A stretch of 64,000 nucleotides of DNA from Rhodothermaceae bacterium bin80 (GTDB lineage: Bacteria; Bacteroidota; Rhodothermia; Rhodothermales; Bin80). Numbering within the stretch: the stretch's first letter is position 1; each line of letters starts with the position of its first letter. A program made the position numbers and the translations under genes. This document shows positions 39,501-62,655 of the stretch, one piece after another. A model generated the notes under the pieces. The model saw only the letters and a list, made by a program, of their open reading frames with translations, searched no databases and was not told the DNA's origin. The stretch is from the NCBI GenBank assembly GCA_002238805.1, contig MPNB01000002.1:14045-78044 (forward strand), read 5' to 3'.

Positions 39501-41035
39501 GCAATCACTATACACCGAACAGCTTGAGGAATTTTCCAAGGATCCCGAAGCGGCTAGACAGCTATTGGAAACCGGGGAGTCTCAACTGCAAGCGGGACTG
39601 AGCCCCGTTGAATGGGCTGCACATACCATGGTTGCCAATGCATTATTATCCTTTGATGAAGTTATTGAGAAATACTGATGCATGCGTGTGGTAATTATGA
39701 TCCTCTCAGCACTCGCAGGGAGTTTCTGGGGCGTCTTGGCATGGGGCTGGGCGGGCTCGCGTTGTCCTCGCTAGTAAATCCGGCCCTGGCCACTGGGACG
39801 GATTTGATCCCGCGCGCAAAGCGTATTATTTATTTGTTCCAGAGCGGTGGCCCCTCGCAGTTTGAACTATTCGACTATAAGCCACAGGTTAATGCCATGC
39901 ACGGGCAGGAGCTGCCCGAATCCGTCCGCAAAGGACAGCGGCTTACCGGCATGACAGGCTTCCAGAACACGTTGCCCCTGGCCCGCTCACACTTTTCTTT
40001 TGGTCAACATGGGGAGAGCGGAACCTGGGTGAGCGAATTGATGCCGCATACTGCAGGGATTGTGGATGAATTATGCTTCGTGAAATCCATGCATACCGAA
40101 GCAATCAATCATGATCCGGCGATTACATTCTTTCTTACGGGATCACAGATCGCGGGTCGGCCATCATTCGGATCATGGCTCAGCTACGGACTCGGAACAG
40201 AAAACGATAACCTGCCTGCATTTTGCGTGCTCATTACTAAAGACAAGGGGGGCCAGCCACTCTATGCCCGACTCTGGGGGAATGGGTTTCTCCCATCCCA
40301 GCACCAGGGAGTGCAGTTCAGAAGCGGCATGGATCCTGTACTTTACCTAGGCAATCCTGATGGTGTCTCTTCAAAACAACGACGAATGCAGCTCGACCGC
40401 CTTCGGGAATTGCATCAGTTGAAAGAAGGAGCGCCCGGATGGGAGCGCATTGAGTCACGGATCGCTCAGTACGAAATGGCCTATCGTATGCAGACATCTG
40501 TACCCGATGTTATGGACCTTTCCAATGAACCGGACTATATCTTTGATCTTTACGGCGAAGATGCCCGGGAACCCGGTACCTTTGCCGCCAACTGTCTTTT
40601 GGCCCGGCGTCTGGCAGAACGGGGCGTACGCTTTATCCAGCTCTTCCATCAGGGATGGGATCATCACGGAGGACTGCCATCCGGCATTAGAGTCCAGTCA
40701 GGGGAAACCGATCAACCCTCGGCTGCACTTGTGCAGGACCTCAAACAACGGGGTATGCTTGACGATACCTTAGTCATTTGGGGTGGAGAGTTTGGGCGCA
40801 CTAATTACTGCCAGGGACGCCTTACAGATGTGGATTACGGTCGTGATCATCATCCTAGATGTTTCACACTCTGGATGGCTGGTGGAGGTTTACGCTCCGG
40901 TTTCAGCTACGGTGAGACTGATGATCTTGGCTATAATGTAGTTCGCGATCCGGTGCATGTGCATGATTTGCAAGCAACCCTGATGCATCTCCTAGGAATT
41001 GATCATGAGCGGCTTACCTTCAAGTATCAGGGCCG
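36513..41035 (+). repeat. tandem segmental duplication, copy B
   Basis: Colinear with copy A; high identity ends after CAGGGCCG at about 41035, inside the 3' end of the third DUF1501 gene. Confidence 0.95.
36526..39678 (+). CDS. PSCyt1 / PSCyt2(DUF1549) / LamG-like / PSD1(DUF1553) protein, predicted lipoprotein (large subunit, pair 3; duplicate of pair 2)
   Basis: 1050 aa, colinear with 31993..35151 and sharing all its motif boxes; leader ...[10 protein letters not shown]. Confidence 0.85.
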
Positions 41036-41090
41036 TCGTTACCGCCTTACGGATGTACACGGCACCGTCGTAAAACCTCTGATAGCATGA
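39678..41090 (+). CDS. DUF1501 family protein with twin-arginine signal (small subunit, pair 3; duplicate of pair 2)
   Basis: 470 aa, differs from 35151..36563 at only about 15-20 residues by eye, including the last about 10 residues. Confidence 0.85.
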   Translation: MHACGNYDPLSTRREFLGRLGMGLGGLALSSLVNPALATGTDLIPRAKRIIYLFQSGGPSQFELFDYKPQVNAMHGQELPESVRKGQRLTGMTGFQNTLPLARSHFSFGQHGESGTWVSELMPHTAGIVDELCFVKSMHTEAINHDPAITFFLTGSQIAGRPSFGSWLSYGLGTENDNLPAFCVLITKDKGGQPLYARLWGNGFLPSQHQGVQFRSGMDPVLYLGNPDGVSSKQRRMQLDRLRELHQLKEGAPGWERIESRIAQYEMAYRMQTSVPDVMDLSNEPDYIFDLYGEDAREPGTFAANCLLARRLAERGVRFIQLFHQGWDHHGGLPSGIRVQSGETDQPSAALVQDLKQRGMLDDTLVIWGGEFGRTNYCQGRLTDVDYGRDHHPRCFTLWMAGGGLRSGFSYGETDDLGYNVVRDPVHVHDLQATLMHLLGIDHERLTFKYQGRRYRLTDVHGTVVKPLIA

Positions 41091-43555
41091 ACCGCTTCAT
41101 TACCGGGTACATTCTGATTGCAGCTGCCATGTTAATGTTCGTCGGCTGTAGCCGTGCTCCAGAGGTTAGTTTTAATGAGCAGATTCGCCCTATACTGAAC
41201 GAGCGGTGCGTGAATTGTCATGGGGGCATCCGCCGCCAAGGGGACCTAAGCTTGCTCTTCCGGCACGAAGCACTTGCCGCAGCAGAATCGGGCGAACGTG
41301 CTGTCGTACCTCTTAAGCCCGCCGAAAGCGAACTGCTGCGACGCGTTTCACATACGGACCCGAAACACCGGATGCCTCAGGATGATGACCCGCTCACACC
41401 CGAGCAAATCCAAACCCTGCACACTTGGATTGCAGAAGGCGCACAATGGGAGGATCACTGGGCTTACGTTACCCCCGAGCGACCCGCATTACCGGGTGTA
41501 TCTGATCCCGCATGGCCGAGTGAGCCACTAGATCACTTTATACTCTCACGTCTGGATGAGGAAGGGCTGTCACCCTCCCCCGAAGCAGAATGCCCAGTGC
41601 TCGTCCGGAGAGTCACACTGGATCTGGTTGGCCTGCCCCCCAAACCGGAAGACGTGAGACAAATCTGTGTAGACGGAGGATCCTACGAGACCTACGTAGA
41701 CTCGCTGCAGGCCTCCCCCACATACGGAGAACGCTGGGCAGCCATGTGGCTGGACTTGGCAAGATATGCTGACTCCAAGGGATATGAGAAAGATATAGGC
41801 CGGACTATTTGGCGTTATCGGGATTGGGTCATCCAGGCCTTAAACGATGATCTGCCATTCGATCAGTTCACGATTGAACAGTTAGCAGGGGATCTTCTGC
41901 CGAATGCAACTGAAAGCCAGCGTATAGCTACAGCTTTTAACCGCAACACCATGACCAACACGGAAGGAGGAACTGACGATGAAGAATTTCGTGTTGCAGC
42001 AGTCATTGATCGCGTGAATACAACCTGGGAGGTATGGCAGGGAACCTCATTCGCCTGTGTTCAGTGCCACGGCCACCCATATGACCCATTCACCCACGAG
42101 GAGTACTACGAATTCTTTACCTTCTTCAACAGCACCGCCGATCGAGATCTGGACAGCGAGTACCCAACCCTCCCGTTGTTTGAGGAAGAGGTTGCCGATG
42201 AAGGAAGTGAGCTCATAGAGGATATTGCGCAACTGGAAGAAGACATCATTGCCCGCGTACGCTCTCATGCTCTGGCTGAAGAGCGACGTGCATGGGAAAC
42301 CACTCTGGACCAACCTGAAATCATTGGCCGCGTCCGACTTATGCTTCAAAACGAAGTCAAGCGGGTTGTGGCCACTCCGGAAGAACAGCGGGGGGATGGT
42401 CAACAACGGACTCTGGACCATATTTACGCCAGTGTCAGTGATGATCCTCAACTTGAGCGTCTGCGTTCTGAAAAAGTAGAAAAGGAGCAGGTACTGCGGA
42501 CATTAAACGCAGTCCATACACCCATCATGCAGGAGCTCCCCTTCCGGCGACGTACGCATGTGTTTGAGCGAGGGAGCTTCCTACTGAAAGGGGAACCGGT
42601 TGAACCCAACACACCCAATGCATTACCTCCTATGCCGGAGGATGCACCCCGTAACCGTCTGGGAATGGCGCGATGGCTGGTTAGCCGTGAAAATCCGCTC
42701 ACTGCACGGGTAACGGTAAATCGATTCTGGGAGCAGCTCTTTGGGATTGGCCTCATCGAATCGCTGGAAGATTTTGGGACTCAGGGGCTTGAGCGCTCCC
42801 ATCCAGACCTGCTGGACTACTTGGCCGTCAGCTTTATGGAGGATCACTCCTGGAGCGTCAAATCATTCCTGCGTTCTGTGGTGATTTCTTCAACGTATAG
42901 GCAGTCCTCACGCGTGACCGGTGAACTGGAAGCCAAAGATCCTCGCAACCGGCTATTGGCCCGGGGCGCCCGTTTCCGTCTGAGTGCAGAGCAGATTCGG
43001 GACCAAGCACTCTATGTGAGCGGGCTGCTAAGTCCTGCAATGTTCGGTCCAAGTGTAATGCCACCTCAACCAGAAGGGCTCTGGAATAACCCTTACGACG
43101 CCCGCCGGTGGCAAACCAGTCAAGGGAATGATCGGTACAGGCGCGGAATTTATACGTACTGGCGGCGCACTGTACCGTACCCGTCTATGGCGACATTTGA
43201 CAGCCCCAGCCGTGAGTTCTGCGTATCTCGAAGGATAAGAACCAACACGCCCCTGCAGGCCTTGGTTTCGCTGAATGATCCTGTATTTATTGAGGCAGCA
43301 CAAGCATTGGCCCAACGCATGCTTGATTCCGAAAATCCTCTTGAAGCGGGATATACGTACGCCATAGGAGTAGCACCAGACGAGAAGGTTCTCGACACAC
43401 TCGGGTCCCTATATAACGACGCCATGACCCACTATACGGAACACGATGACGATGTCACTACATTAACCGGAGACCAGGGATCTGCTGAATTGGCGGGCTT
43501 AACCGTTGTCGCTAATGCGATCCTTAATCTCGATCAGTTCATTATGAAAGAGTAA
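41087..43555 (+). CDS. PSCyt1 / PSCyt2(DUF1549) / PSD1(DUF1553) protein without LamG insert, predicted lipoprotein (large subunit, pair 4)
   Basis: 822 aa; leader ...AAMLMFVGC; CVNCHGG...HRMPQ; RRVTLDLVGLPP; ARYADSKGYEKD; ACVQCHGHPYDP; FDSPSREFC...TNTPLQALVSLND; acidic helical linker where pairs 1-3 carry the LamG-like domain. Confidence 0.85.
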   Translation: MNRFITGYILIAAAMLMFVGCSRAPEVSFNEQIRPILNERCVNCHGGIRRQGDLSLLFRHEALAAAESGERAVVPLKPAESELLRRVSHTDPKHRMPQDDDPLTPEQIQTLHTWIAEGAQWEDHWAYVTPERPALPGVSDPAWPSEPLDHFILSRLDEEGLSPSPEAECPVLVRRVTLDLVGLPPKPEDVRQICVDGGSYETYVDSLQASPTYGERWAAMWLDLARYADSKGYEKDIGRTIWRYRDWVIQALNDDLPFDQFTIEQLAGDLLPNATESQRIATAFNRNTMTNTEGGTDDEEFRVAAVIDRVNTTWEVWQGTSFACVQCHGHPYDPFTHEEYYEFFTFFNSTADRDLDSEYPTLPLFEEEVADEGSELIEDIAQLEEDIIARVRSHALAEERRAWETTLDQPEIIGRVRLMLQNEVKRVVATPEEQRGDGQQRTLDHIYASVSDDPQLERLRSEKVEKEQVLRTLNAVHTPIMQELPFRRRTHVFERGSFLLKGEPVEPNTPNALPPMPEDAPRNRLGMARWLVSRENPLTARVTVNRFWEQLFGIGLIESLEDFGTQGLERSHPDLLDYLAVSFMEDHSWSVKSFLRSVVISSTYRQSSRVTGELEAKDPRNRLLARGARFRLSAEQIRDQALYVSGLLSPAMFGPSVMPPQPEGLWNNPYDARRWQTSQGNDRYRRGIYTYWRRTVPYPSMATFDSPSREFCVSRRIRTNTPLQALVSLNDPVFIEAAQALAQRMLDSENPLEAGYTYAIGVAPDEKVLDTLGSLYNDAMTHYTEHDDDVTTLTGDQGSAELAGLTVVANAILNLDQFIMKE

Positions 43556-43654
43556 TACAGTGCGGCACCTCTGGTAAATGCTAATGGACACAATGCAGTA
43601 TTCGCCCTAAATTCAATTGCTTATGGTTACGGCTGGAACGTTCTTCGATTCAAC

Positions 43655-45118
43655 ATGAGTCTTGCTAAAGAAGCCCAACACGCATATCTGGGGCACGTTA
43701 CGCGTCGCCACTTCCTGAAGTCCGCGGGTGCCGGACTCGGAGCTATGGCTTTTGCCTCACTTGGTGCAGTCGGAGCAGCTGACCCGACCGGCTCTCCCGA
43801 TCCGTTGGCACCGCTCAAACCACATTTTGCACCACGTGCTAAACGTGTGATCTTTTTGCATATGGCCGGCGGTCCCTCTCCATTGGAGTTATTTGACTAC
43901 AAGCCCACACTCGCGCGGCTGCATGGCCAGGACTGTCCCGAATCGCTCCTGGAAGGCAAGCGCTTCGCATTCATCCGGGGCGTACCAAAAATGTTGGGAC
44001 CACAGGCCACTTTCCGTCAGCACGGAGAGTCGGGCGCCTGGATCTCGGATCATCTACCGCACCTAGGGCGTGTCGCTGATAAGATTGCCTTCCTCAAGGC
44101 CATGCGCACTGATGAATTCAACCATGCTCCAGCACAACTATTAGTCCATTCAGGGAGCCCCCGGCTTGGCCGCCCGAGCATGGGGTCCTGGGTGACTTAT
44201 GGGCTTGGTACTGAGAACGCGAACCTGCCTGCATTTGTCGTGCTGCTTTCCGGAGGAGCTGCACCGGACGCGGGAGCCAGTGTGTATGGAAGTGGCTTTC
44301 TGCCCACAGTTTACCAAGGTGTGCAGTGCAGAACCAAAGGGGATCCGGTCTTGTTTTTGGGCGACCCGGAGGGTGTGCCGCGTAACCTGCGGCGTAAATC
44401 CATTGATGCCATTAATACGATCAACCAGCAACAGTACGAGGAAATTGGTGATCCCGAAATTCTCACACGCATTGCGCAGTATGAAATGGCTTTCCGCATG
44501 CAGACCTCTGTACCGGAAGCCATGGATATCAGCCGTGAGCCTGCCTACATACATGAGCTGTACGGCACCGCTCCCGGCGAAACGGCATTCAGTAATAACT
44601 GCCTTCTCGCACGAAGGCTGGTGGAACGGGGCGTTCGCTTCGTTCAGTTGTTTCACTGGGGCTGGGACTCGCACGGTGCGGGAGAAAGTGAGGCCCTGAA
44701 CGGGGGCTTCCTGGAGCGCTGCCGCGAAACTGATCGCCCGGTTACTGCACTCCTGGAAGATCTGGAACAGCGCGGTCTGCTTGAAGAAACCCTGGTGATC
44801 TGGGGTGGAGAATTTGGGCGAACGCCAATGCTGGAAAACCGCTCGGGTACAGACAATCCCTTTGTCGGCCGGGATCATCACAGCGACGCCTATACGATGT
44901 GGATGGCCGGTGGCGGGGTTAAGGGCGGCATCACACATGGTGAAACAGACGAAATCGGATATAGCGCCGTGAGCGGTCAGGTACATGTCCACGACCTGCA
45001 AGCCACGATCCTGCATCTGCTTGGGTTTGATCACCTGCGACTAACTTATCCCTTCCAAGGCCGAGATTTTCGCTTAACCGATGTGCACGGACATGTTGTG
45101 CACCAAGTCTTGGCATAA
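43655..45118 (+). CDS. DUF1501 family protein with twin-arginine signal (small subunit, pair 4)
   Basis: 487 aa; VTRRHFLKSAGAGLGAMAFASLG; [14 protein letters not shown]; GRDHHSDAY; VHDLQATILHLLG. Confidence 0.85.
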   Translation: MSLAKEAQHAYLGHVTRRHFLKSAGAGLGAMAFASLGAVGAADPTGSPDPLAPLKPHFAPRAKRVIFLHMAGGPSPLELFDYKPTLARLHGQDCPESLLEGKRFAFIRGVPKMLGPQATFRQHGESGAWISDHLPHLGRVADKIAFLKAMRTDEFNHAPAQLLVHSGSPRLGRPSMGSWVTYGLGTENANLPAFVVLLSGGAAPDAGASVYGSGFLPTVYQGVQCRTKGDPVLFLGDPEGVPRNLRRKSIDAINTINQQQYEEIGDPEILTRIAQYEMAFRMQTSVPEAMDISREPAYIHELYGTAPGETAFSNNCLLARRLVERGVRFVQLFHWGWDSHGAGESEALNGGFLERCRETDRPVTALLEDLEQRGLLEETLVIWGGEFGRTPMLENRSGTDNPFVGRDHHSDAYTMWMAGGGVKGGITHGETDEIGYSAVSGQVHVHDLQATILHLLGFDHLRLTYPFQGRDFRLTDVHGHVVHQVLA

Positions 45119-45139: not shown

Positions 45140-46651
45140 ATGAAGCAATCCGTGTTTTGGCTGTGTGCAGGCCTCGCCTTTCTGGCGGTTATGCTGATAA
45201 TGGTACCGGGTTCTGGCCGACCAAGTGACTTTAGCCTGTTCCTGGGACGATTCCACCCGGTCGTTGTGCATCTACCGATTGGGATCCTAGTGGTCGCTAC
45301 CCTGCTTGAGTGTCTTTCACGCAGGTCTGCCTGGCGGGGACGGTATGATACAGGGATTCTGGCACTCCTGTATATTGGCGTCTGGAGCTCTATCCTAGCC
45401 GTCATTGTCGGCCTGTACCTGGCCCAAGGTGGCGGCTATGCCGCCAGTCAACTGGCTTGGCATAAGCGCATGGGCATTCTGGTCGTCCTGTTTGCTTCGC
45501 TGGCCTACCTGTACAAAGCCTGGCCGGGCCTCTCTGAACGCTGGCTTAAGCACTGGGAACGTCGTGTGTACGGTATATCGTTAGGCCTACTGCTGTTGGT
45601 GGTTGCACTTGCCGGACATCTGGGTAGTACGCTGACACATGGCCCGGATTACTTATCCCGCTATATGCCTGATGGCTTGCGCCAGATTGCGGGACTATCC
45701 AAAAAAGCCGATATCGGACGACTCCAGTTGGATAATCCTGCTGAAACTACCACGTATACAGCGCTGATTGCCCCCATCCTAGAATCCAGGTGTGTCTCGT
45801 GTCATGGTGCTGACGCCCAACGGGGTGGACTGCGTTTGGATACCCCCGAATTTATCAGCGAGGGAGGAGATGATGGACCACCCATTATCGCTGGTCGCGC
45901 GCATGAGAGTGAGCTTATTCACCGCGTGTGGCTACCGCTCAGTTCGGACGATCATATGCCACCTGTCGAGAGCCCACAGCTGTCAGTGGCGGAAGCCGAG
46001 CTGCTGAGATGGTGGATTGACTCAGGAGCCTCTTTTGAGGAACTCCTTCCCGACGCTGAATGGTCACCCGTTGTTCAAACTATTGTGGACGGTATGGGAC
46101 TGGACGAAATTCGGACCGGAATCTTTGCACTGGATACCGGTCTGCCGGATTCTATGGACATAGTTGCACTCGCTAACCTAGGATTATCAGTAACCCCCCT
46201 GGCTGAAGATGAACCCTACCTGCAGGTGCGCTGCATGGACCTGGAAGCATGCACCGGCACGAGTGAGTTGCGCGGAGCTCTATCACGCCTCGCCCCCAAT
46301 ATCGCATGGCTTGATCTTGGACGCTCCCAGGCTGGAGACGATCTGGTGGCGGTGATCGCAGATCTGCCACATGTGACGCGCCTACATCTACAGCAAACTT
46401 CGGTTACAGATGACGGATTGGCGCATCTGAGCGACTTGGAGTTTCTGGAGTATCTAAACCTTTATGGTACAGCAGTGTCCGATTCGGGACTGATCCATCT
46501 TGAACAATTACCCGAGCTGAAGTCACTCTATCTCTGGCAAACAAATACCACCGAGGCAGGGGTAGAGCGTTTGCAATCTGCCGTGCCTGAACTATACATC
46601 AATACCGGTCTAAGCCTGAACCCAATCGAACCCGACAGTACTGACATATGA
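45140..46651 (+). CDS. polytopic membrane protein with PSCyt1 (CxxCH) domain and C-terminal leucine-rich repeats
   Basis: 503 aa; about 5 N-terminal TM helices including FHPVVVHLPIGILVVATLLE; CVSCHGADAQRGGLRLD...DHMPPVE...LLRWWIDSGA; LRR-like VTRLHLQQTSVTDDGLAHLSDLEFLEYLNLYGTAVSDSGLIHLEQLPELKSLYLWQT. Confidence 0.75.
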   Translation: MKQSVFWLCAGLAFLAVMLIMVPGSGRPSDFSLFLGRFHPVVVHLPIGILVVATLLECLSRRSAWRGRYDTGILALLYIGVWSSILAVIVGLYLAQGGGYAASQLAWHKRMGILVVLFASLAYLYKAWPGLSERWLKHWERRVYGISLGLLLLVVALAGHLGSTLTHGPDYLSRYMPDGLRQIAGLSKKADIGRLQLDNPAETTTYTALIAPILESRCVSCHGADAQRGGLRLDTPEFISEGGDDGPPIIAGRAHESELIHRVWLPLSSDDHMPPVESPQLSVAEAELLRWWIDSGASFEELLPDAEWSPVVQTIVDGMGLDEIRTGIFALDTGLPDSMDIVALANLGLSVTPLAEDEPYLQVRCMDLEACTGTSELRGALSRLAPNIAWLDLGRSQAGDDLVAVIADLPHVTRLHLQQTSVTDDGLAHLSDLEFLEYLNLYGTAVSDSGLIHLEQLPELKSLYLWQTNTTEAGVERLQSAVPELYINTGLSLNPIEPDSTDI

Positions 46652-48411
46652 GCTTACATGTACGCCTTTGGCCCCTTCCTTTTCTATTGTGCGCGTGTGC
46701 CGGGCCAGAACTCACAGTTGAGGAACTGCTTCTTCTAGAACGTCCAAATATCGTCTGGATATCGGCTGAAGATATGGGACCGAGGCTCGGGGCCTATGGG
46801 GATACCGTTGCCCGAACCCCTCACTTGGACTCACTTGCCAGCCGTAGCACACGCTACACACATGTATTTACCACCGCGGGGGTCTGCTCTCCCAGCCGTG
46901 CAGCCATTATCACCGGCATACACCAGGTCAGTCTTGGGGCGCATCACATGCGGACTCTCTCTGGCGCCCCTTTTGCACCCGAACCCACACCGTACAGCGT
47001 GGTCCCTCCCCATTATGTAAAGACCTTTACGGAATACCTGCGTGCAGCTGGCTACTACACTACCAATAATGTGAAGGAGGACTATCAGTTCGAAACCCCA
47101 ATCACAGCCTGGGATGAATCCAGCTCTGAGGCTCACTGGCGTAACCGCCGGGATCCCGATCAACCTTTCTTTTCGGTGTTCAATTTTACGACAACGCACG
47201 AGAGTCGTATCTGGCCGGATCCTGCAGCAGCCTTTGAAGCCATGGGACTACCCGCTGCAGCAGCACCGCCTCCGCCTGCACCGCTCTCAACCGATCCTGA
47301 TGCGGTTATCGTGCCGCCCTATTACCCAGACACGCCCGTCGTGCGACGCGATATTGCACAGCAATACGACAATATCGCAACTATGGATACTCAGGCTGGC
47401 ATGATTCTTGATCAATTGGAGGAGGATGGCCTACTGGACAATACAATCGTCTTTTTCTGGAGCGATCACGGTGATGGATTACCGCGTCATAAACGGTGGC
47501 TGTACGATTCCGGCCTGCATGTTCCGATGATCATCCATACACCTGGACAGACACCTGGTGTTAATGAGGAGCTTGTGAGCTTTCTGGATCTCGCTCCTAC
47601 TGTACTTTCAATGGCAGGGATTGAGCCGCTGGCCCACATGCAGGGACGGGCCATTTTGGGGGAATTCGCCGGTAATAAGCCTCCACACGAATACGTGTAC
47701 GCGGCAAGGGATCGCTTCGATGAGCAGTACGACCTGGTACGAGCTGTTCGGGATACGCGATACAAATATATCCGCAACTATCGGACGGAAAAACCATATA
47801 CGCTCTGGATGGCCTACGCGAACGTAATGCCTACTATGCAAGAGCTCTTCAGACTGCATGCAGAAGGTGTACTAACCGGCCCCCAAACGCTTTGGATGCG
47901 TACACGCCGCCCGGTTCACGAGCTTTATGACACGATTGAGGATCCATATGAACTTCGCAATCTTGCGTACAATCCAACACACAAGGATGAGCTCTTACGC
48001 ATGCAGCAGGCACTGGATAGTTGGATTGCGACGAGTGGGGACTGGGGTTTCAGATCTGAACTGGACATGGTTGAATCAATGTGGCCAAACGGAGAACAAC
48101 CAATTACGGGTGCACCAATCATGCTGCCGCAAGCTACCCCACGCACGGCGATCCAGACTGGCAGTCTGGATCACACACAAAGCGGCGGGATTTTTCACGA
48201 TCCCATCGACATAACGATGTACAGCGGAACGCAAGGCGCCTCAATCGCATACGCAATTGTCGACAAAACGGGCACGGAGGGAGATTGGTTGCTTTTTTCT
48301 ACTCCACTCAGGATTGATAAAACCACCACCCTTCGCGCAAAAGCAATCAGGTATGGGTACCAAGAAAGCTCCGTGAGCGAAGCCACATTCCTCATCTCTT
48401 CCGGCGAATAG
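46648..48411 (+). CDS. sulfatase (Cys-type) with C-terminal chitobiase/FN3-associated-like domain
   Basis: 587 aa; leader ...PFLLCACAG; formylglycine signature CSPSRAAIITG; SDHGD; ATGA overlap with the upstream gene; C-terminal about 90 aa resemble the CHB_HEX_C-type domain (SIAYAIVD...TTTLRAKAIRYGYQES). Confidence 0.85.
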   Translation: MSLHVRLWPLPFLLCACAGPELTVEELLLLERPNIVWISAEDMGPRLGAYGDTVARTPHLDSLASRSTRYTHVFTTAGVCSPSRAAIITGIHQVSLGAHHMRTLSGAPFAPEPTPYSVVPPHYVKTFTEYLRAAGYYTTNNVKEDYQFETPITAWDESSSEAHWRNRRDPDQPFFSVFNFTTTHESRIWPDPAAAFEAMGLPAAAAPPPPAPLSTDPDAVIVPPYYPDTPVVRRDIAQQYDNIATMDTQAGMILDQLEEDGLLDNTIVFFWSDHGDGLPRHKRWLYDSGLHVPMIIHTPGQTPGVNEELVSFLDLAPTVLSMAGIEPLAHMQGRAILGEFAGNKPPHEYVYAARDRFDEQYDLVRAVRDTRYKYIRNYRTEKPYTLWMAYANVMPTMQELFRLHAEGVLTGPQTLWMRTRRPVHELYDTIEDPYELRNLAYNPTHKDELLRMQQALDSWIATSGDWGFRSELDMVESMWPNGEQPITGAPIMLPQATPRTAIQTGSLDHTQSGGIFHDPIDITMYSGTQGASIAYAIVDKTGTEGDWLLFSTPLRIDKTTTLRAKAIRYGYQESSVSEATFLISSGE

Positions 48412-48420
48412 CCCTGCTGT

Positions 48421-50817
48421 ATGCAAAAATTCCTTCCTCGTCTAATACTCTTATGTACAGCTGCAGTTTACCTTTCCGTACAACATTTGCCCATTGCTGT
48501 TGCCCAAGAAAGCCCTATTACAGTGAGCGGTACTGTAACGGATGCCGAGACTGGTGAACTGGTAGTCGGGGCTGCGTTGTACGTAGCTGCACAAGATGTA
48601 GGAGTAACAACCAATCAGTACGGCTACTACAGCCTGACGCTTCAACGTGATAGCGTACGCATGGTGGTCAATCATGTCGCGTACGTGCCACAGGTGATCG
48701 TGTACTTACCCCAAGAGGACCTCCGCCTGGATATTTCGCTCGTACCTGCTACACTCGCTCTAGACGAAGTAGAGGTTACCGCTTCCGTCGAGTCAGCACT
48801 TCAGACAACACAAATGAGTGGAATCTCACTGCCTGTACAAAACGTTGAGGTTCTTCCGTCACTCCTGGGAGAAACAGATGTCTTGCGCATTATCCAACTT
48901 CTGCCAGGAGTTCAGTCAGGTGTGGAAGGTTCAACCGGTCTCTATGTGCGTGGGGGTGGTCCAGACCAGAATCTTTATTTGCTTGATGGAACACAGATCT
49001 ATAACCCCAGCCATCTGTTTGGATTTTTGAGCACCTTTAATCCAGACGCGATAAAGGATGTCCAACTCCTCAAAGGAGGTTTTCCTGCGCGTTACGGTGG
49101 ACGGCTTTCCTCAGTGATCGATCTGACCATGAAGGAAGGGAATATGAAGCGGTTTGCAGGAGCAGGGGCCATTGGACTCCTTGCTTCACGCTTAACCGTG
49201 GAGGGTCCTATCATTCGAGATCGTGCTTCCTTCCTTGTCGCTGGACGCCGGTCCTATGCCGACCTACTTGTCCGCCCCTTCCTCAACAACGATGATCAAG
49301 AGGCCGGGTACTATTTCTACGACTTCAATGTGAAGACCAATGTTATTCTTACACCCAAAGACCGAATATATCTGAGTGGCTACGCGGGAGACGACCGCCT
49401 GTATGAGCGTTATAGTTACAACGATAATGATAGCTGGGAACGGACTGCGCTGAATTGGAGCAATCTGACGGGCACCTTCCGCTGGAATCACATATTTGGG
49501 CCGAGATTGTTCTCGAATGTACTGGTCGGTTACACAAATTATTCTCTGCTTGCAACCAACGAAGACCGTTATGTCTCACATAGAGTTAATGATATCGACG
49601 TTAACCACAGTCAGTATTATGCTTCGTACGAATCCGGCATTCGCGATCTGCATGCGCGTGCTGACGCGGAGTTTATTCCCAATGCCCGTCATAATATTCG
49701 TTTTGGACTGGGAGGGCAATTGCACAGTTTCCTCACAGGGGCCTTTGAGGAGATCCATCGGGTAAATGATGTTAAGGAGTATTCCTCAACTACCCCAAAC
49801 AGGCGATCAAAAGGAAGAGAGTTCCAAGCCTACATTGAAGATGATTGGCGCCTGGCTTCGCGGATACGCCTCAATACGGGAGTGCACATCTCAAGCTTTC
49901 TGATTGACCAGAAGACCTATTACTCGGTTGAACCGCGTATTGGAGCGCTTTTCCGCCTGGACTCGAAAACCAGCTTTAAAGCATCCTTAGCATATATGCA
50001 GCAGTACATTCACCTCTTGGCGACTACAAGTGGCTTCTCTCTACCCACAGACCTGTGGGTACCTGCAACCGCACGAATCAAGCCTCAGCAGTCCATGCAA
50101 GTTGCCGGTGGTGCAGTTCATTCAATTTCTGGCGGAAAATTTGAGATCTCAATTGAAGGGTACTACAAGCGATTGCAAAACCTGATTGAATACGAAGAGG
50201 GCGCCGACTTTTTCGACGCTACCCTTGGGACGTGGGAAGACCGAGTGGTGACCGGACGCGGTGTCGCCTACGGCGGCGAGATTTTTCTCCAAAAGCAATC
50301 CGGCCGCACTACCGGCTGGATAGGCTACACGCTATCGTCGAGTCGTCGGCAATTCGACGATATAAATCATGGGGCATGGTTTCCTTATCGGTATGATCGC
50401 CGTCATGATGCCGCCTTGGTCATCAGTCACAAGTTTAGACCATGGTTTGATATAAGTGCATCCTGGGTCTATGGCACCGGTCAGGCCGTCACATTGCCCG
50501 TCGGCCATATTTTCGCAGAGCCAGAAATTTTCGTGGCATTTCCATGGGGACGAGCGAACCGGCTTGACTTGTATAGTGTACAGAGTTCACGCAATGGTGC
50601 ACGCATGCCGGCCTATCATCGACTGGACTTAAGTATTCGTATAAAGCGAACGAGAACACGTTTGAAAAGAACATTATCAATCGGCACCTACAATACATAC
50701 AACCGGAGGAACGCCCTCAGCATCTATGCCGAGCGAGATCGCACAGGTGATTTAGTATTCAAAAAGTTTAGTCTACTCCCCATAGTTCCCGCGATAAGCT
50801 ACCAGTTATCCTACTAG
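48421..50817 (+). CDS. TonB-dependent receptor with N-terminal carboxypeptidase-regulatory-like domain
   Basis: 798 aa; signal peptide; VSGTVTDAETGELVVGAALYV (CarboxypepD_reg-like); plug region DVLRIIQLLPGVQSG...GLYVRGGGPDQNLYLLDG; C-terminal beta-barrel ending ...ISYQLSY. Confidence 0.85.
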   Translation: MQKFLPRLILLCTAAVYLSVQHLPIAVAQESPITVSGTVTDAETGELVVGAALYVAAQDVGVTTNQYGYYSLTLQRDSVRMVVNHVAYVPQVIVYLPQEDLRLDISLVPATLALDEVEVTASVESALQTTQMSGISLPVQNVEVLPSLLGETDVLRIIQLLPGVQSGVEGSTGLYVRGGGPDQNLYLLDGTQIYNPSHLFGFLSTFNPDAIKDVQLLKGGFPARYGGRLSSVIDLTMKEGNMKRFAGAGAIGLLASRLTVEGPIIRDRASFLVAGRRSYADLLVRPFLNNDDQEAGYYFYDFNVKTNVILTPKDRIYLSGYAGDDRLYERYSYNDNDSWERTALNWSNLTGTFRWNHIFGPRLFSNVLVGYTNYSLLATNEDRYVSHRVNDIDVNHSQYYASYESGIRDLHARADAEFIPNARHNIRFGLGGQLHSFLTGAFEEIHRVNDVKEYSSTTPNRRSKGREFQAYIEDDWRLASRIRLNTGVHISSFLIDQKTYYSVEPRIGALFRLDSKTSFKASLAYMQQYIHLLATTSGFSLPTDLWVPATARIKPQQSMQVAGGAVHSISGGKFEISIEGYYKRLQNLIEYEEGADFFDATLGTWEDRVVTGRGVAYGGEIFLQKQSGRTTGWIGYTLSSSRRQFDDINHGAWFPYRYDRRHDAALVISHKFRPWFDISASWVYGTGQAVTLPVGHIFAEPEIFVAFPWGRANRLDLYSVQSSRNGARMPAYHRLDLSIRIKRTRTRLKRTLSIGTYNTYNRRNALSIYAERDRTGDLVFKKFSLLPIVPAISYQLSY

Positions 50818-50821
50818 GACT

Positions 50822-51973
50822 ATGAGTCATACACATGACCGTTCTGTGATCCGACAGATTCACTCAAACATGGCATTATCGCAGTTCTTGAACTACGGTT
50901 CCTCATCGTTAGAGCAAGCTTTGAAGAGTGACAATCAAAACCGTACCCTCCGTCCTGCTGACTCCATGCAAACTGTTAGGCTCATCTGGACCAAGCTAAC
51001 TCAGAGTTTACGGCTGTTACAGCTTCCTCATGATCCAGTTACCCGACTACTTATAGCCTGCGCAATATTACTATCGGCCTGTGAAACTACCATTGAGATT
51101 GATCCACCGGATTACGACCCGGAACTGAATGTCACTAGCAACTTCATGCCAGATTCGGTCTGGGCAGCAAGGGTCACGAGAACAATTCCGATTGGTAGCC
51201 TTGGAGATACGGCGCCGGTTTTCCTAGATAATGCGACTGTCATGATCTACAGCGACAATGTCCTCGTCGCCCGACTTATTCACGATGGTGGAGAGGATGG
51301 TTGGTATGAGTCGCCGCAAATGCGGAGGCCCCGCACAAATACGCTCTATCGAATGGTCGTTGAAGCGCCCGGATTGCCTTCGGCGTCAGCGATCTCTATG
51401 GCCCCTCCTCCCCCACGCATACTTACTGCTGAGGCAACTAAACTGGATTCCTTCGACCCCTTCCGGGGTCCCCAATATTTAGTCAGTTTCAGTCTGGCGG
51501 ACAACCCTGGTCTCAATTATTACAGTTTCAGCATTTTTCTTGCACTCCCCGAAGATGTATCCCCTATTTCCTCGGAGTACACAGTCTATCCGGTGACCAT
51601 GACCCGCGACAGCCAGCAATGGTATTGCTTCTACGGTGATGTTCTGAACCCCATTGCAAGCAGCCCCGCAGAAGACGAAGACTGCACCATCGGTATCCTG
51701 TCCGATCGATCTTTTGATGACCGGACTCGCAATTTTGATATAGTGGTCTACCTAGGTTATGATTTGGGAGATGAATTGGACACTGACTTGGTACTATACG
51801 TAATGGCCCTCAGTCCCGAATATATCGAACATCGGAGCTCTATTGAGGAACAGGACTATTTTGATGGTTTCGGACAGCCCGCTAATCTGTACACAAATTT
51901 TGAGGGCGGACGGGGAATATTTGCAGGCTACTCCACGCATTACCGTATCTTGGACTTAGCGGACACTGAGTAG
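50822..51973 (+). CDS. DUF4249-like lipoprotein (usual partner of this TonB-receptor type)
   Basis: ORF of 383 aa; lipobox RLLIACAILLSAC at residues about 76-88, so the true start may be ATG 50966; family call from position after the CarboxypepD_reg-type receptor and general resemblance. Confidence 0.6.
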   Translation: MSHTHDRSVIRQIHSNMALSQFLNYGSSSLEQALKSDNQNRTLRPADSMQTVRLIWTKLTQSLRLLQLPHDPVTRLLIACAILLSACETTIEIDPPDYDPELNVTSNFMPDSVWAARVTRTIPIGSLGDTAPVFLDNATVMIYSDNVLVARLIHDGGEDGWYESPQMRRPRTNTLYRMVVEAPGLPSASAISMAPPPPRILTAEATKLDSFDPFRGPQYLVSFSLADNPGLNYYSFSIFLALPEDVSPISSEYTVYPVTMTRDSQQWYCFYGDVLNPIASSPAEDEDCTIGILSDRSFDDRTRNFDIVVYLGYDLGDELDTDLVLYVMALSPEYIEHRSSIEEQDYFDGFGQPANLYTNFEGGRGIFAGYSTHYRILDLADTE

Positions 51974-52406: not shown

Positions 52407-54383
52407 ATGATTCGTGTCGTTGCCCTTGTTCTGTTGATTGCAGCATCTAGTGCGACTGCTACACAGGCGCAGTTTCTGGGCTGTCCACTCATTGACCAGA
52501 TTACGCTGCAGGCATGCAAGGTGCTAGAAAAACTCTTCTACGATACGGACGGGTATAACTGGCGCAACGTACGCGGCTGGCTTCGGACGAACCAACCCTG
52601 TGATTGGTACGGTATCACATGCAGATCCTCGAGATGGCCAAGGGAAATCATACACATTGACCTTTCCGGCAACAACCTGACTGGTACACTGCCGGGAGAT
52701 CTGGCATTCCTGCAGGAACTGCAATCCCTTCGGATCGACAACAGTGGTCCGGGCGTCCGACTAAGAAAACTGACCGGCCAAATCCCGACAACCCTCGGAG
52801 ATCTTGAGTACCTGGAGGTTCTAACACTGGGTAATAATGCCTTCACAGGCACCATCCCGGCAGAACTCGGAAACCTGCCCAATCTTCGGGAACTAAGTCT
52901 GGAAGCTAATGAACTGGAAGGACCAATACCCGAGAGACTTGGACAATTATTGCAATTGCAGCGCCTTGATCTCAGTGAGAATCATTTGGGAGGATCAATT
53001 CCCGATACACTCCGCAATCTGACCAAGCTAGAGTACCTCAACTTGCGCCAAAATATGTTCACTGGAAACCTACCAGTATGGCTGGGAGATTTCAATATGC
53101 TCAGGTTTTTTGATGCAAGCCAAAATCAACTGTCGGGGAGGATACCGGAAGAATTCTCCAATCTAGACGAACTTCTCTGGCTATCCCTCGCTGACAACAA
53201 TCTGGAAGGCGCTCTGTCCCTCTCCATAGCCACCTTTGCTGCAGGCATAAATAACTGTGACCTGCAAGGAAATGGCGTATGCATTCCAGATGCACCCCCA
53301 TATGCCAACCTGGATCAAGTTTGCTCGCTGTCTCGAGACAATGCGTGTAAAGCATGTGAAGGGCCCAATTGCGAAAGCCTTGAATCTATCTACGTTGAGA
53401 CAGGAGGGGCGACATGGACACAAAATAATGGATGGCTCGCCAGTTCTCAGCCATGCGATTGGCATGGCGTCAACTGTACCGGTGAAGCAATAACACATTT
53501 GATCCTGCCGGATAATGGCATGGTGGGTAAGTTACCCGCCGCTCTATCGTCCATGCAAAGCCTTGAAGTCCTCGACCTATCTGGAAATAACCTTCAAGGG
53601 TCCATGCCGGCAAAGTACGCTGCACTCACCAATCTGGATATTCTGGATCTTAGCGACAACAAGCTGACGGGCGCCCTGCCACTCCAGGTCGCAGTTCTTG
53701 GCACAAAACTGTCCCAGTGCAACCTCTCAAACAATGCCGGTATCTGCGTACCCGATAGTCCAGAATATGCAGCACTTGACACTAGCCCTATCTGTCATCT
53801 CCAGCTTCGCGGAGACTGCCTGGGCTACGATCTTGTCGCTGTAAGTGAGCTGAAAGCTATGCCGGGGGAACGATCAATTCGTCTTACCTGGTCTATAACA
53901 CCATCCTCCTCCGCGATTACGTTCTTTGTCGAAAACACGCAGCAGCCACCGGTGACCATCGGCCAGGTTCAGGGGAACAGTGAGGCGCAGACCACCTTTA
54001 CGTACACCGTAGAGGATCTGGATCCAGGTCAATATTCTTTCCAGATCCGGCAAGTAACGGCCAACGGCGCCTACAGGGTTACCGGACCTGTGACTGCTGA
54101 ATTGTATGCCGAAGGCCTTGTGACAGAGAAAGCTTATCCTAATCCATTTTCCACGGAAGCCGTTCTTCAGTTCACCTCCGGCACATACGGATCAGTCGAT
54201 ATCGCACTGTATGATCTTCTTGGTCGTCGGATCCAGACTCTTTTCAGCGGCACACCTCCACTTCATCAATCAACCCGGATCAAGATCAAAGCCCATGGAC
54301 TCTCGGCCGGAACCTACATAGTGCGCAGCCGCATAGAAGATCAACCGGCATCCTCCCAGCGTATAGTATTCGTCAGGGACTAG
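52407..54383 (+). CDS. secreted leucine-rich-repeat protein (plant-type 24-residue LRRs, two LRRNT-like caps) with T9SS C-terminal sorting domain
   Basis: 658 aa; signal peptide; caps ...NQPCDWYGITC and ...SQPCDWHGVNC; LRRs such as LSGNNLTGTLPGDLAFLQELQSL and NAFTGTIPAELGNLPNLRELSL; FN3-like segment; C-terminal YPNPFSTEAVLQF...IALYDLLGRRIQTLF (Por secretion tail). Confidence 0.8.
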   Translation: MIRVVALVLLIAASSATATQAQFLGCPLIDQITLQACKVLEKLFYDTDGYNWRNVRGWLRTNQPCDWYGITCRSSRWPREIIHIDLSGNNLTGTLPGDLAFLQELQSLRIDNSGPGVRLRKLTGQIPTTLGDLEYLEVLTLGNNAFTGTIPAELGNLPNLRELSLEANELEGPIPERLGQLLQLQRLDLSENHLGGSIPDTLRNLTKLEYLNLRQNMFTGNLPVWLGDFNMLRFFDASQNQLSGRIPEEFSNLDELLWLSLADNNLEGALSLSIATFAAGINNCDLQGNGVCIPDAPPYANLDQVCSLSRDNACKACEGPNCESLESIYVETGGATWTQNNGWLASSQPCDWHGVNCTGEAITHLILPDNGMVGKLPAALSSMQSLEVLDLSGNNLQGSMPAKYAALTNLDILDLSDNKLTGALPLQVAVLGTKLSQCNLSNNAGICVPDSPEYAALDTSPICHLQLRGDCLGYDLVAVSELKAMPGERSIRLTWSITPSSSAITFFVENTQQPPVTIGQVQGNSEAQTTFTYTVEDLDPGQYSFQIRQVTANGAYRVTGPVTAELYAEGLVTEKAYPNPFSTEAVLQFTSGTYGSVDIALYDLLGRRIQTLFSGTPPLHQSTRIKIKAHGLSAGTYIVRSRIEDQPASSQRIVFVRD

Positions 54384-54645: not shown

Positions 54646-56232
54646 ATGACGCAGGAAAAGAAGAAATTATCTGAAAAAAAAGCCGCACCTGATGCGAACA
54701 GTGCCGTAGTTGGGTACGAAGCCGAACTCTGGGATATGGCCAACTTGCTTCGGGGAAGCATGGACGCGGCCGAATACAAGCACATCGTTTTGGGGCTAAT
54801 ATTTCTCAAGTACATATCCGACGCGTTTGAGGAAAAACGCCGCGACCTCGAAACACGAATATCCGAAGGAGATGATCAAGATAATCCAGAGGATCCTGAT
54901 CAATACCGTATGGACAACATATTCTGGGTGCCTCCCGAAGCTCGCTGGCAGGACATCCAGGCGCAGGCAAGACAACCCTCCATCGGAAGACTCATCGATA
55001 AAGCGATGATGGAAATCGAGCGCGTAAACAAGGAGCTTAAGAGTGTCCTACCGAAAGACTATGCTCGCCCAGCGCTGAATAAGCAAAGGCTCGGCCAAGT
55101 AATTGATCTTATCAGCAACATAAAAGTCGGCGACAGTAATGCGCGATCAAAGGATGTTCTGGGAAGGGTCTACGAATACTTTTTATCTCAATTTGCGAGT
55201 GCTGAAGGAAAGAGGGGCGGGGAGTTCTATACACCGCGCTGCATCGTTCGGCTTTTGGTTGAGATGATAAAACCCTATCGGGGTCGAGTCTATGATCCGT
55301 GCTGCGGCTCATCCGGCATGTTCGTGCAATCGATAGAATTTATTCGCTCACATGCTACCGGTAATGGTAATGGGGGTAAAGCACGGGGAGACATATCGAT
55401 TTATGGTCAGGAGTCGAATTATACGACATGGCGCCTAGCAAAAATGAATCTTGCCATCCGCGGCATTGAAGGTCAAATTGCACACGGCGACAGCTTCCAC
55501 AACGATAGACACCTGGATTTGAGAGCGGATTTTATCCTTGCCAATCCACCGTTTAATGTTTCTGATTGGGGAGGAGAGCGTTTGGTAGAGGATAAGCGCT
55601 GGCGCTACGGTGTGCCGCCGAAGAGTAATGCCAATTTCGCCTGGATTCAGCACATGGTTCACCATCTTGCCCCGAGGGGCGTTGCGGGGTTCGTGCTGGC
55701 CAACGGGTCTATGTCTTCGAATCAGTCCGGCGAGGGCGAGATCCGCAAGAACCTAGTCGAGGCCGAACTCGTGGACTGCATGGTCGCCCTTCCCGGCCAA
55801 CTGTTCTACTCGACACAGATTCCTGCCTGTCTTTGGTTCCTTGCACGCCGACGCAGGCGGCGCGGCGAGATCCTCTTCATTGATGCGAGGAAGCTCGGAC
55901 GGATGATGGACCGGACGCACCGCGAACTGACCGGCGAGGACATCACCCGGATCGCGGACACCTACCATGCTTGGCGAGCTACCAAGGAAGGGGGCAGCTA
56001 CGCCGATGTTCCCGGCTTCTGCAAGAGCGCCGCGCTGGACGAGGTCCGCAAGCACGGCCACATGTTGACGCCGGGCCGGTATGTGGGCGTGGAGCCGCAG
56101 AAGAACGACGGAGAACCCTTCAAGGACAAGATGAAGCGGCTGGTCGCTGAGTTTCGAGAGCAACAGGCCGAAGGTGGTCGACTTGATGCTGCGATCAACG
56201 AGAACTTGGAATCATTAGGATTCGGAGGATGA
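54646..56232 (+). CDS. hsdM: Type I restriction-modification system, N6-adenine DNA methyltransferase subunit
   Basis: 528 aa; HsdM N-domain ([32 protein letters not shown]); AdoMet box [12 protein letters not shown]; catalytic LANPPFN. Confidence 0.93.
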
Positions 56233-56239
56233 GGGGGCA

Positions 56240-56665
56240 ATGAATATAGACACTACCTTCCTGCGCCGCTGTATTGCCTCGCTAGAACGAGCGATGGAGG
56301 AAATCAAACGGCATGAGGGCGGCGACAATATCATGTACGATATCTATCGCGCCGCGTGCGTCAAGGAATTTGAACTTGTACTTGAGCAGTCCGGTAAGCT
56401 GTTGCGCAAGCTGCTGGCCGCCTGGTTTGCCAGCAACAAACAGGCCGACCGTCTCCATTTTAAGGATATCTTCCGCCATGCGGCTCGTCACGACCTGATC
56501 GCGTCTGACGCAACAGAGCGCTGGCTGCGCTATCGTGACAACCGCAATCTCACCGCTCACGACTACGGTGAAGATTTTGCGGAGCACACACTCAAGCTGC
56601 TTCCCGCATTCATTGCTGATGCGAAATCCTTGGCTGACATGCTTGATCGTACGAACGATGAGTAA
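56240..56665 (+). CDS. HEPN-domain protein, HI0074-type nucleotidyltransferase substrate-binding family (pair 1)
   Basis: 141 aa; Rx4H motif in RDNRNLTAHDY; starts 7 nt after the hsdM stop. Confidence 0.8.
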   Translation: MNIDTTFLRRCIASLERAMEEIKRHEGGDNIMYDIYRAACVKEFELVLEQSGKLLRKLLAAWFASNKQADRLHFKDIFRHAARHDLIASDATERWLRYRDNRNLTAHDYGEDFAEHTLKLLPAFIADAKSLADMLDRTNDE

Positions 56666-56990
56666 CCGGTTGCTTCTCTCTCCAAGACACCGGTGCATTT
56701 TGGAGGCGCTGTTGCGGGAGCACTTGCCCGATGTGGAGGTGTGGGCGTATGGCAGCCGCGTGAGCGGCCGGGGCCACCAAGGCAGTGATCTCGACCTCGT
56801 GCTACGGGGGCCAGGGCTCAACGAAATTCCATTCGAACGGCTGATGGACTTTAAGGATGCCGTCCGGGAATCGACGATTCCTTTTCTCGTCGAGGCGAGG
56901 GACTGGGCGAGACTGCCGGAGCGATTCCATCGGGAGATCGGGCGGGAGCATGTGGTGGTTGTGGGGCTACAGGAAATACGGACATCATAG
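56658..56990 (+). CDS. minimal nucleotidyltransferase (MNT) domain protein (pair 1)
   Basis: 110 aa from ATG 56658 (ATGAGTAA overlap with the HEPN stop); YGSRVSG...GSDLDLVL (GS and DxD motifs) ... PFLVEARDW. Confidence 0.8.
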   Translation: MSNRLLLSPRHRCILEALLREHLPDVEVWAYGSRVSGRGHQGSDLDLVLRGPGLNEIPFERLMDFKDAVRESTIPFLVEARDWARLPERFHREIGREHVVVVGLQEIRTS

Positions 56991-57199
56991 GCCGACCGTT
57001 TCGTGATGATTAGTTTTTCGGCATTGGGACTGCATTTTTCCTGATCACCTTACTTCGTACTGGTAGGAGACCTGCTTGTATCTTCCATGGAGGCGCCCTA
57101 TCTTTCGCCGTATGCAGTATAATTTTTGCGGTGTTTGAGCACGGAGAATCCCGCTGCATGTACACGCGAGGTTCGCCGTATTCCTTGGGAAGTTTTCCA

Positions 57200-57455: not shown

Positions 57456-57507
57456 TCCTGCATTCAATGTAAAACCGTGATCGCCGTGCGGGCCTAAGGG
57501 TAGTACC

Positions 57508-57641: not shown

Positions 57642-57647
57642 TAGCTT

Positions 57648-58429: not shown

Positions 58430-58442
58430 AAGTTCGGCGAGT

Positions 58443-60856: not shown

Positions 60857-60953
60857 TGATCCGTGTCCTCATAACCCCATTTGTTCTCCGCTGAGCACGC
60901 AAGTGGTCGTGGCGAACGAGACATTGCTTGCGATCCGGCACCGAAGTAGTCAA

Positions 60954-62653: not shown

Positions 62654-62655
62654 CC

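Follow-up and report, generated by a model that had tools for sequence, protein, structure and literature searches.

Two separable modules in a PSCyt/DUF1501, sulfatase and TonB-transporter gene run of a Rhodothermales genome: a reading from gene neighbourhoods

The stretch considered here (hereafter the window) comprises 64,000 nucleotides (nt) of Rhodothermaceae bacterium bin80, taken from contig MPNB01000002.1 of assembly GCA_002238805.1, and carries twelve + strand open reading frames (ORFs) between positions 27424 and 51973, in which an array of PSCyt and DUF1501 genes is followed by a membrane cytochrome gene (gene 9), a sulfatase, a TonB-dependent transporter and a DUF4249 lipoprotein. 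The run is probably best understood as two separable modules joined head-to-tail, a periplasmic PSCyt/DUF1501 system (module A, 27424–48411) and a transporter-and-lid unit (module B, 48421–51973, probably extending to 54383), and their juxtaposition is an ordinary, lineage-specific one rather than a conserved uptake-and-processing pathway. Module A accounts for nine c-type haem sites, four DUF1501 proteins with predicted twin-arginine translocation (Tat) export, one membrane-anchored cytochrome, and one sulfatase assigned by sequence to subfamily S1_8. A first-pass annotation had instead joined the sulfatase, the transporter and DUF4249 with the array in one pathway resembling a polysaccharide utilisation locus (PUL), a view that a comparison with about 160 related loci does not support.

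Conservation of the array, the transporter pair and the sulfatase

Gene 9 (45140–46651, + strand) encodes, according to Pfam, a DUF2231 membrane domain, a PSCyt1 cytochrome domain and a leucine-rich repeat (LRR), and has more than 1,200 homologs in Rhodothermales, Cytophagales, Verrucomicrobiota and Acidobacteriota. An alignment-based scan with one genome per species yielded 79 gene 9 loci with 10-kb flanks, onto which the window proteins were mapped by phmmer; the 24 Rhodothermales loci with gene 9 identity of at least 55% are referred to as the clade, and the remaining 55, from Cytophagales, Balneolales, Gemmatimonadaceae, Vicinamibacteria and distant Rhodothermales, as outside loci. A DUF1501 gene lies directly upstream of gene 9 at all 23 assessable clade loci, and 44 of the 55 outside loci contain DUF1501, usually with a PSCyt gene; in 33 of these 44 the DUF1501 gene is upstream of gene 9 on the same strand and at most 2.5 kb away. 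The DUF1501 nearest to gene 9 is of the type found last in the window array (copy d) at 23/23 clade and 32/44 outside loci, and the nearest PSCyt gene best matches window copy d at 21/21 clade and 28/42 outside loci. This conserved and mostly d-type adjacency therefore identifies PSCyt d, DUF1501 d and gene 9 as a deep, conserved triad, to which the three LamG-bearing pairs further upstream are clade-level additions. Gene 9 is thus a conserved partner of the last PSCyt/DUF1501 pair and not one of the ‘tail genes’ among which it had initially been counted, while its proposed link to the array does extend beyond a single genome, being adjacent to the pair across several orders and phyla.

The transporter (48421–50817, + strand; CarbopepD_reg_2, Plug and OMP_b-brl_4 barrel domains in Pfam) belongs to a large and well-conserved family, with 45–48% identity reaching into Cytophagales. 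In four genome contexts from Cytophagales and Rhodothermales (45–55% identity, precomputed Pfam annotation) the transporter is followed by DUF4249 among unrelated neighbours such as ftsZ, metH and hisS, with neither a sulfatase nor PSCyt/DUF1501 genes nearby, and a metagenome scan with a transporter alignment added 80 further loci, in most of which DUF4249, as detected by single-sequence phmmer, is directly downstream. No PSCyt, DUF1501 or gene 9 homolog occurs near the pair at any of these 84 loci (about 0.73 Mb of flanking DNA), and a sulfatase occurs at only one of them, 8 kb away; reciprocally, the window-type transporter family is found at none of the 55 outside gene 9 loci. The association between TonB receptors and the array on which the single-pathway proposal had been staked is therefore missing from related genomes, and the transporter/DUF4249 pair stands as a self-contained unit of transporter plus lid that has been described before.

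Closer relatives point in the same direction. The chromosome-scale 3.72-Mb contig of a sister genome (ERZ21830284 contig_1, which matches the window at 67% identity in gene 9, 54% in the transporter and 48% in the LRR protein described below) contains DUF1501, gene 9 and the sulfatase at 909–930 kb, and the transporter, DUF4249 and the LRR protein at 491–511 kb, the latter with spacers of 2 and 7 nt. Since they lie about 400 kb apart, the two modules are separable. Of 21 assessable clade loci, nine keep the transporter pair intact beside the array. A 1.4-kb insertion interrupts the transporter at one locus (L013, 13593–17360), and a 600-nt remnant is all that is left of it at another (L016, 13242–13847); L015, L017 and L031 lack the pair, and L019 has it but no sulfatase. 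The pair has thus been repeatedly lost or decayed inside the clade.

The third gene of this neighbourhood, downstream of DUF4249 on the + strand (52407–54383), encodes a protein with LRR and fn3 domains and a type IX secretion C-terminal domain in Pfam. Its ortholog in the sister genome (L088, 12259–14256, 48% identity) follows DUF4249 after 7 nt, and in two other genomes (L024 and L026) the gene follows the sulfatase. It probably belongs to the same neighbourhood, and may function together with either module. A recent insertion of the transporter pair behind the array was considered and dropped, as the positions of this gene make an old neighbourhood with repeated erosion equally parsimonious; because it adjoins either module in different genomes the two histories are indistinguishable, and the parts are separable under both.

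The sulfatase (46648–48411, + strand) is a clade-level partner of module A. Its ortholog directly follows gene 9 at 16 of 22 assessable clade loci, and in 12 of these 16 the start of the sulfatase overlaps the stop of gene 9 in the same ATGA (46648–46651 in the window), while the more distant clade loci show gaps of 0–52 nt down to 59% gene 9 identity. At four loci (L005, L022, L023 and the sister genome's L091) the trio of DUF1501, gene 9 and sulfatase stands alone, without any PSCyt gene. Outside the clade a sulfatase is present at five of the 55 gene 9 loci (L038, L041, L043, L046 and L073), an adjacency that is 3.6-fold enriched but not significant (Fisher one-sided p=0.076, with crude gene calls). 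The suggested link of the sulfatase to the array is therefore upheld beyond one genome within the clade, and finds next to no echo outside it.

One pathway or two modules

Several observations weigh against reading the run as two modules. Its full arrangement is kept in six genomes at 90–99% gene 9 identity and in three at 70–80%, and so persists down to about 70% (L012, L013 and L021), outlasting what chance adjacency would be expected to survive. The gap between sulfatase and transporter is 9–11 nt both in the window and in the five to six genomes closest to it, although it widens to 310–330 nt in L012 and L013. The occurrence of the LRR/type IX gene beside either module fits an old five-part neighbourhood that has since eroded, rather than a recent insertion. 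All five outside sulfatases, though non-orthologous to that of the window, directly flank the PSCyt–DUF1501–gene 9 module at mutually unrelated loci, and given the precedent from Verrucomicrobia these systems may have a real link to sulfated substrates.

The persistence of the full order would also be expected if the twelve genes formed a single operon and a single pathway, a SusD-less analogue of a PUL, in which the transporter and its lid would import a sulfated oligosaccharide, the sulfatase would desulfate it, and the PSCyt/DUF1501 proteins would finish its processing. Such a pathway would sit well with co-directional genes separated by at most 99 nt (148 nt if DUF4249 starts at 50966) and junctions without a terminator-like site, with a glycan substrate, to which the LamG domains of three PSCyt proteins and the carbohydrate-type S1_8 sulfatase are suited, and with the literature precedent for sulfatases near PSCyt genes. 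We nevertheless consider it unlikely, in view of the mutual absence of the two modules at the 84 transporter and 55 outside gene 9 loci, their separation in the sister genome, and the repeated loss of the pair within the clade. Moreover, the SusC model TIGR04056, whose cut-off is 368.25, gives the transporter 61 bits, with only profile positions 1–191 aligned to its N-terminal 190 residues, and by this sequence criterion the transporter is placed outside the SusC family; the twelve genes include no SusD, glycoside hydrolase or regulator, and published alternative-lid transporters take up small solutes and not polysaccharide fragments.

An explanation in which only the PSCyt/DUF1501 genes and gene 9 belong together, with the sulfatase and the transporter pair as chance neighbours in a streamlined symbiont genome, would accommodate the scarcity and non-significant enrichment of sulfatases outside the clade and their irregular fate inside it (there is none beside gene 9 in L015, L017, L019 or L025, it is shifted by 7.8 kb in L027, and only fragments are left at about 15000–17100 beside an IS605 OrfB/TnpB-like gene in L006/L030), but is made quite improbable by the ATGA overlap and short gaps retained across the clade, the persistence of the PSCyt-free trio, and the independent recruitment of non-orthologous sulfatases beside the module in Gemmatimonadaceae, Balneolales and Cytophagales.

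Taking the run as two modules, a plausible division of labour can be outlined. The DUF1501 enzymes and the sulfatase would act in the periplasm and strip ester groups from small sugars carrying sulfate or other esters, while the PSCyt proteins would bind the substrate through LamG and, through their haems, exchange electrons with the inner membrane by way of gene 9, whose LRR would serve for docking. Module B would import small solutes across the outer membrane with DUF4249 as its surface lid, presumably working alone in most genomes; situated 9 nt behind module A in the window lineage, it may be reached by read-through from A, and could then supply A with its substrate. The coupling of the two modules is lineage-specific and dispensable, and does not define PSCyt/DUF1501 systems. 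Domain content, signal types, synteny statistics and separability are what the sequences show; substrates, electron flow and co-transcription are the parts of this scheme that we infer. A bolder version, in which the PSCyt proteins, DUF1501 and gene 9 form a membrane-wired periplasmic redox-plus-esterase machine, gene 9 acts as a DUF2231 haem conduit whose LRR docks the di-haem PSCyt lipoproteins, and the clade-specific coupling to an S1_8 exo-sulfatase and a transporter–lid pair reveals its substrates as small sulfated sugars, perhaps sponge-derived, must be considered doubtful; if true, it would open a first functional route into families that number many thousands of members and have no known function. 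The context originally proposed for these families is thus partly supported as far as gene 9 and the sulfatase are concerned, both being linked to the array, and is not supported for the transporter/DUF4249 part or for the PUL-like label; the idea of sulfatases beside PSCyt genes had already been published in 2017 for Verrucomicrobia.

Gene content, expression signals and surroundings

The twelve genes are indeed co-directional throughout, as both the ORF layout and the junction sequences attest. The first seven are joined by overlaps of 4, 38, 1, 38, 1 and 4 nt, and a 99-nt gap (43556–43654) follows. Of the junctions listed earlier, the ATGA overlap, the 9 nt between sulfatase and transporter (48411 to 48421) and, with the longest ORF, the 4 nt between transporter and DUF4249 (50817 to 50822) are correct, whereas the 22 nt given for 45118/45140 is a coordinate difference, the actual spacer being 21 intergenic nt. 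Whether the 99-nt gap is the largest in the run, as was stated, depends upon the start of DUF4249 (50822–51973, + strand, in its longest form): it is for a start at 50822, but for a start at 50966 the preceding gap of 148 nt exceeds it. The latter is probably the true start. In an ORF of 383 codons the lipobox comes only at codon 87; homologs elsewhere measure 302–315 residues, and the NCBI annotation begins at 50966 (335 residues). The 85-codon N-terminal extension, though uninterrupted by stops in six close relatives, shows poor conservation next to the mature part.

Pfam supports the domain calls made for the array and the four tail genes. It also bears out the reported absence from the window of a SusD-like gene and of a sulfatase maturase, as neither a SusD-like family nor the formylglycine-generating enzyme (PF03781) or a radical S-adenosylmethionine maturase was matched among the roughly 45 window ORFs scanned. 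Glycoside hydrolase (GH), polysaccharide lyase and carbohydrate esterase families are likewise missing from 27424–54383 and the 3 kb upstream, as are regulators of the hybrid two-component (HTCS), extracytoplasmic function (ECF)/anti-sigma and SusR types. The window sequence is also present in an 82-kb contig of GCA_026713585.1 and in several metagenomes, and a complete chromosome of a metagenome-assembled genome (MAG) labelled ‘Rhodothermales bacterium’ (OZ219799.1) is 99% identical over gene 9. Judged from the names of related MAGs alone (RHO1_bin, CAR3_bin, SB0661_bin), the source MAG is probably sponge-associated; a literature search on sponge Rhodothermales and sulfatases returned nothing usable.

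The array consists of four PSCyt–DUF1501 pairs, all on the + strand and with all families far above their Pfam cut-offs. The first pair comprises a lipoprotein of PSCyt1-PSCyt2-Laminin_G_3-PSD1 architecture (PSCyt a, 27424–30573; lipobox LLLSAAC, CxxCH at residues 50 and 341) and a DUF1501 protein of the alkaline-phosphatase superfamily with an RRHFF twin-arginine signal (DUF1501 a, 30570–32030; 536 bits). Pairs b (PSCyt 31993–35151, DUF1501 35151–36563) and c (36526–39678 and 39678–41090) repeat the PSCyt1-PSCyt2-LamG-PSD1 plan, and at 86% identity between their PSCyt proteins and 96% between their DUF1501 proteins they represent a recent tandem duplication; they also have a 38-nt overlap in common, and their ATGTGCATGGCCATGTGG start regions are identical. 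The last pair combines a short PSCyt1-PSCyt2-PSD1 form lacking LamG (PSCyt d, 41087–43555) with a DUF1501 protein bearing a Tat signal (DUF1501 d, 43655–45118), whose subfamily maintains 70–75% identity across Rhodothermales and Gemmatimonadota. A lipoprotein-type signal and two CxxCH motifs are found in each of the four PSCyt proteins, and an RR[HE]F[FL] twin-arginine motif at the N-terminus of all four DUF1501 proteins, although the Pfam TAT_signal model gives only a weak match, to DUF1501 d (18.4 bits, under the 22.7-bit cut-off).

Profile comparison by hhalign aligned DUF1501 with sulfatases (probability 75%, E 2.6e-5) over the metal-binding half with its DHG-type metal motif, which makes it a remote homologue of sulfatases within the alkaline-phosphatase superfamily. 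A low-confidence structural model (predicted local distance difference test, pLDDT, of 59.6) is compatible with the alkaline-phosphatase fold, its top Foldseek matches all being LtaS, arylsulfatase A, sulfamidase or alkaline phosphatase, at TM-scores of about 0.3 that are too weak for placing catalytic residues. Sequence searches of the PDB with DUF1501 and PSCyt gave no matches, and a literature search gave no paper covering DUF1501 and DUF1553 together.

Gene 9 contains a single haem c site (CVSCH, residues 218–222). In its model (pLDDT 81.5) five membrane helices are accompanied by a small cytochrome c domain and an LRR of the ribonuclease-inhibitor type, and in the family alignment the helix histidines are invariant, as is the CxxCH...MPP signature. 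In a Foldseek search with this model only the LRR found solved relatives, the DUF2231 membrane domain having no match, so that haem b binding by the conserved DUF2231 histidines is a guess. In the literature searched DUF2231 is mentioned only by a database paper, which does not discuss its function. Gene 9 looks like an undescribed third component of PSCyt/DUF1501 systems. In Balneolales (L041, L044, L048, L062, L079) a 308-residue xylose-isomerase-like TIM-barrel gene lies between DUF1501 and gene 9, and in some Cytophagales (L051, L052, L073) a DRL-type NAD oxidoreductase gene occupies this position on the opposite strand. Such neighbours, of a sugar-metabolism type, may give a clue to the class of substrate.

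The sulfatase combines Sulfatase (PF00884, 140 bits), SGSH_C and CHB_HEX_C_1 domains in Pfam with an N-terminal signal or lipobox, and has the Cys-type C-x-P-x-R motif as CSPSR at residues 79–83. Its closest solved relative is S1_8A (PDB 9bb9, E 2e-83), aligned over residues 32–480 including the catalytic cysteine, and among distinct PDB sequences the first five belong to S1_8A, S1_8B and S1_8C (E 2e-83 to 1e-61), with human sulfamidase next; its predicted membership of S1_8 follows from these closest solved relatives. The DUF4249 protein (PF14054, 75 bits against a cut-off of 28.5) continues after its LLSAC lipobox with an acidic stretch, which in the light of lipoprotein export signals in Bacteroidota fits surface exposure. 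By analogy with described transporter pairs DUF4249 is the putative surface lid of the transporter, and such an alternative lid would account for the ‘missing’ SusD.

Tight co-directional spacing of this kind is the typical appearance of an operon. In the 24000–56000 region the terminator-like matches of an intrinsic-terminator scan were intragenic, with none at the junctions of the run, and a sigma-70 promoter scan returned counts equal to the shuffled expectation, the promoter type of Rhodothermales lying outside its coverage. The Bacteroidota −7 motif TAnnTTTG, with seven + strand sites in the entire window, is absent from the 200 nt upstream of all gene starts except that at 30570 (site at 30426), and an Rfam scan found neither a riboswitch nor any other RNA element within or ahead of the cluster, its only hit being a tRNA at 2957–3030. 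Given the 9–11 nt gap free of predicted terminators, co-transcription of sulfatase and transporter appears likely in the window lineage. GC content and GC at third codon positions fall slightly at the boundary between these two genes, from 0.53–0.57 to 0.50–0.52; these values are within the range of other genes in the window, and the fall was not read as a sign of foreign origin. The region of some 3 kb upstream of the array (24401–27424) holds only short minus-strand ORFs (24758–25273, 26122–26619, 26669–27013) with no family match, or sub-threshold coiled-coil matches only, and no recognisable regulator.

Immediately downstream of module B and its LRR gene lies a defence island (54646–63336) with type I restriction genes HsdM (54646–56232) and HsdS (58479–60032), a nucleotidyltransferase-type gene (56535–56990), and a PADLOC candidate for HEC-01 A/B formed by an AAA_21 ATPase (61469–62653) and DUF4276 (62656–63336). 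Towards the other end of the window a second sulfatase with Sulfatase and Sulfatase_C domains (3726–5138, + strand) neighbours a GH88-like ORF on the opposite strand (5223–6617; 25.8 bits, just under the 26.6-bit cut-off), and together they may represent a separate locus for a sulfated uronic-acid glycan. An ABC ATPase, an ABC-2 permease, ABC_transp_aux and DUF4340 follow in a row at 14674–18784, a set which we take to resemble the GldA/GldF/GldG gliding-motility transporter, and which would fit the type IX secretion signal of the protein encoded at 52407–54383.

Significance and relation to known systems

Few uncharacterised families have expanded as far as PSCyt1/PSCyt2/PSD1 and DUF1501 in Planctomycetota, Verrucomicrobiota and some Bacteroidota, and any reliable functional context for them is useful. 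From the present comparison gene 9 emerges as a partner with deep roots across phyla and a reasonable target for further study, and the S1_8 sulfatase as a clade-level partner meriting biochemical attention, while the transporter/DUF4249 pair offers no basis for inferring the function of the array. As a more general caution, a co-directional run containing a sulfatase and a TonB receptor should not be taken for a PUL by default. The families themselves, their pairings and the idea of a sulfatase–PSCyt connection are already in the literature, whereas the cross-phylum PSCyt–DUF1501–gene 9 triad and the clade-specific translational coupling of an S1_8 sulfatase appear to be undescribed in the literature searched.

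Clusters of PSCyt1/PSCyt2/PSD1 and DUF1501 genes, some with an extra PSCyt1/WD40 protein, have been described in Planctomycetota and Verrucomicrobiota (Kamneva et al. 2012, PMC3542564). These PVC clusters share with the window a haem c PSCyt1-PSCyt2-PSD1 protein with optional Laminin_G_3, followed by a twin-arginine DUF1501 protein, as well as the organisation into tandem arrays, the complex ones adding a separate protein that combines PSCyt1 with a repeat domain. In the window the corresponding protein joins PSCyt1 to a DUF2231 membrane domain and, in place of WD40, to an LRR, so that gene 9 looks like an analogue of the PSCyt1/WD40 component, equipped with an LRR and a membrane anchor. The window differs further in its host, Rhodothermales (Bacteroidota/Rhodothermota group), and in its translationally coupled sulfatase. 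In MAGs of freshwater Verrucomicrobia, sulfatase genes were found often to adjoin PSCyt genes, some of these with carbohydrate-binding or LamG domains, and a periplasmic processing of sulfated carbohydrates was suggested (He et al. 2017, PMC5615132); those genomes belong to another phylum, and a link to a TonB transporter and DUF4249, or a partner of the gene 9 type, has no counterpart there.

The solved relative of the window sulfatase, S1_8A of Pseudoalteromonas distincta U2A (PDB 9bb9/9bes), is a galactose-2-sulfate exo-sulfatase from a lambda-carrageenan locus, within a subfamily of exo-acting 2-O-sulfatases that includes human sulfamidase (10.1101/2025.01.09.632246). In comparison, the window enzyme carries an additional C-terminal CHB_HEX_C_1 domain and a lipoprotein-like signal, and is not part of a carrageenan locus.

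The arrangement of a TonB-dependent transporter and a surface lipoprotein partner beside a carbohydrate sulfatase recalls SusC/SusD PULs, from which the window differs by a transporter that fails the SusC model and by the lack of SusD, of a GH or lyase, and of an HTCS, SusR or ECF regulator. A closer parallel is found in the DUF4249 protein BT2173, which shows cofitness with the non-SusC transporter BT2172 and, by prediction, forms a lid on its outer face (Price et al. 2023, 10.1101/2023.03.17.533168). As in the window, a non-SusC transporter is followed there by DUF4249 on the same strand, an adjacency conserved across genera (10.1101/2023.03.17.533168; 10.1101/2023.08.23.554478), the likeness being one of family and gene order rather than of sequence comparison with BT2172. 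What sets the window apart from this system is the placement of the pair, 9 nt behind a sulfatase and ahead of an LRR gene with a type IX secretion domain.

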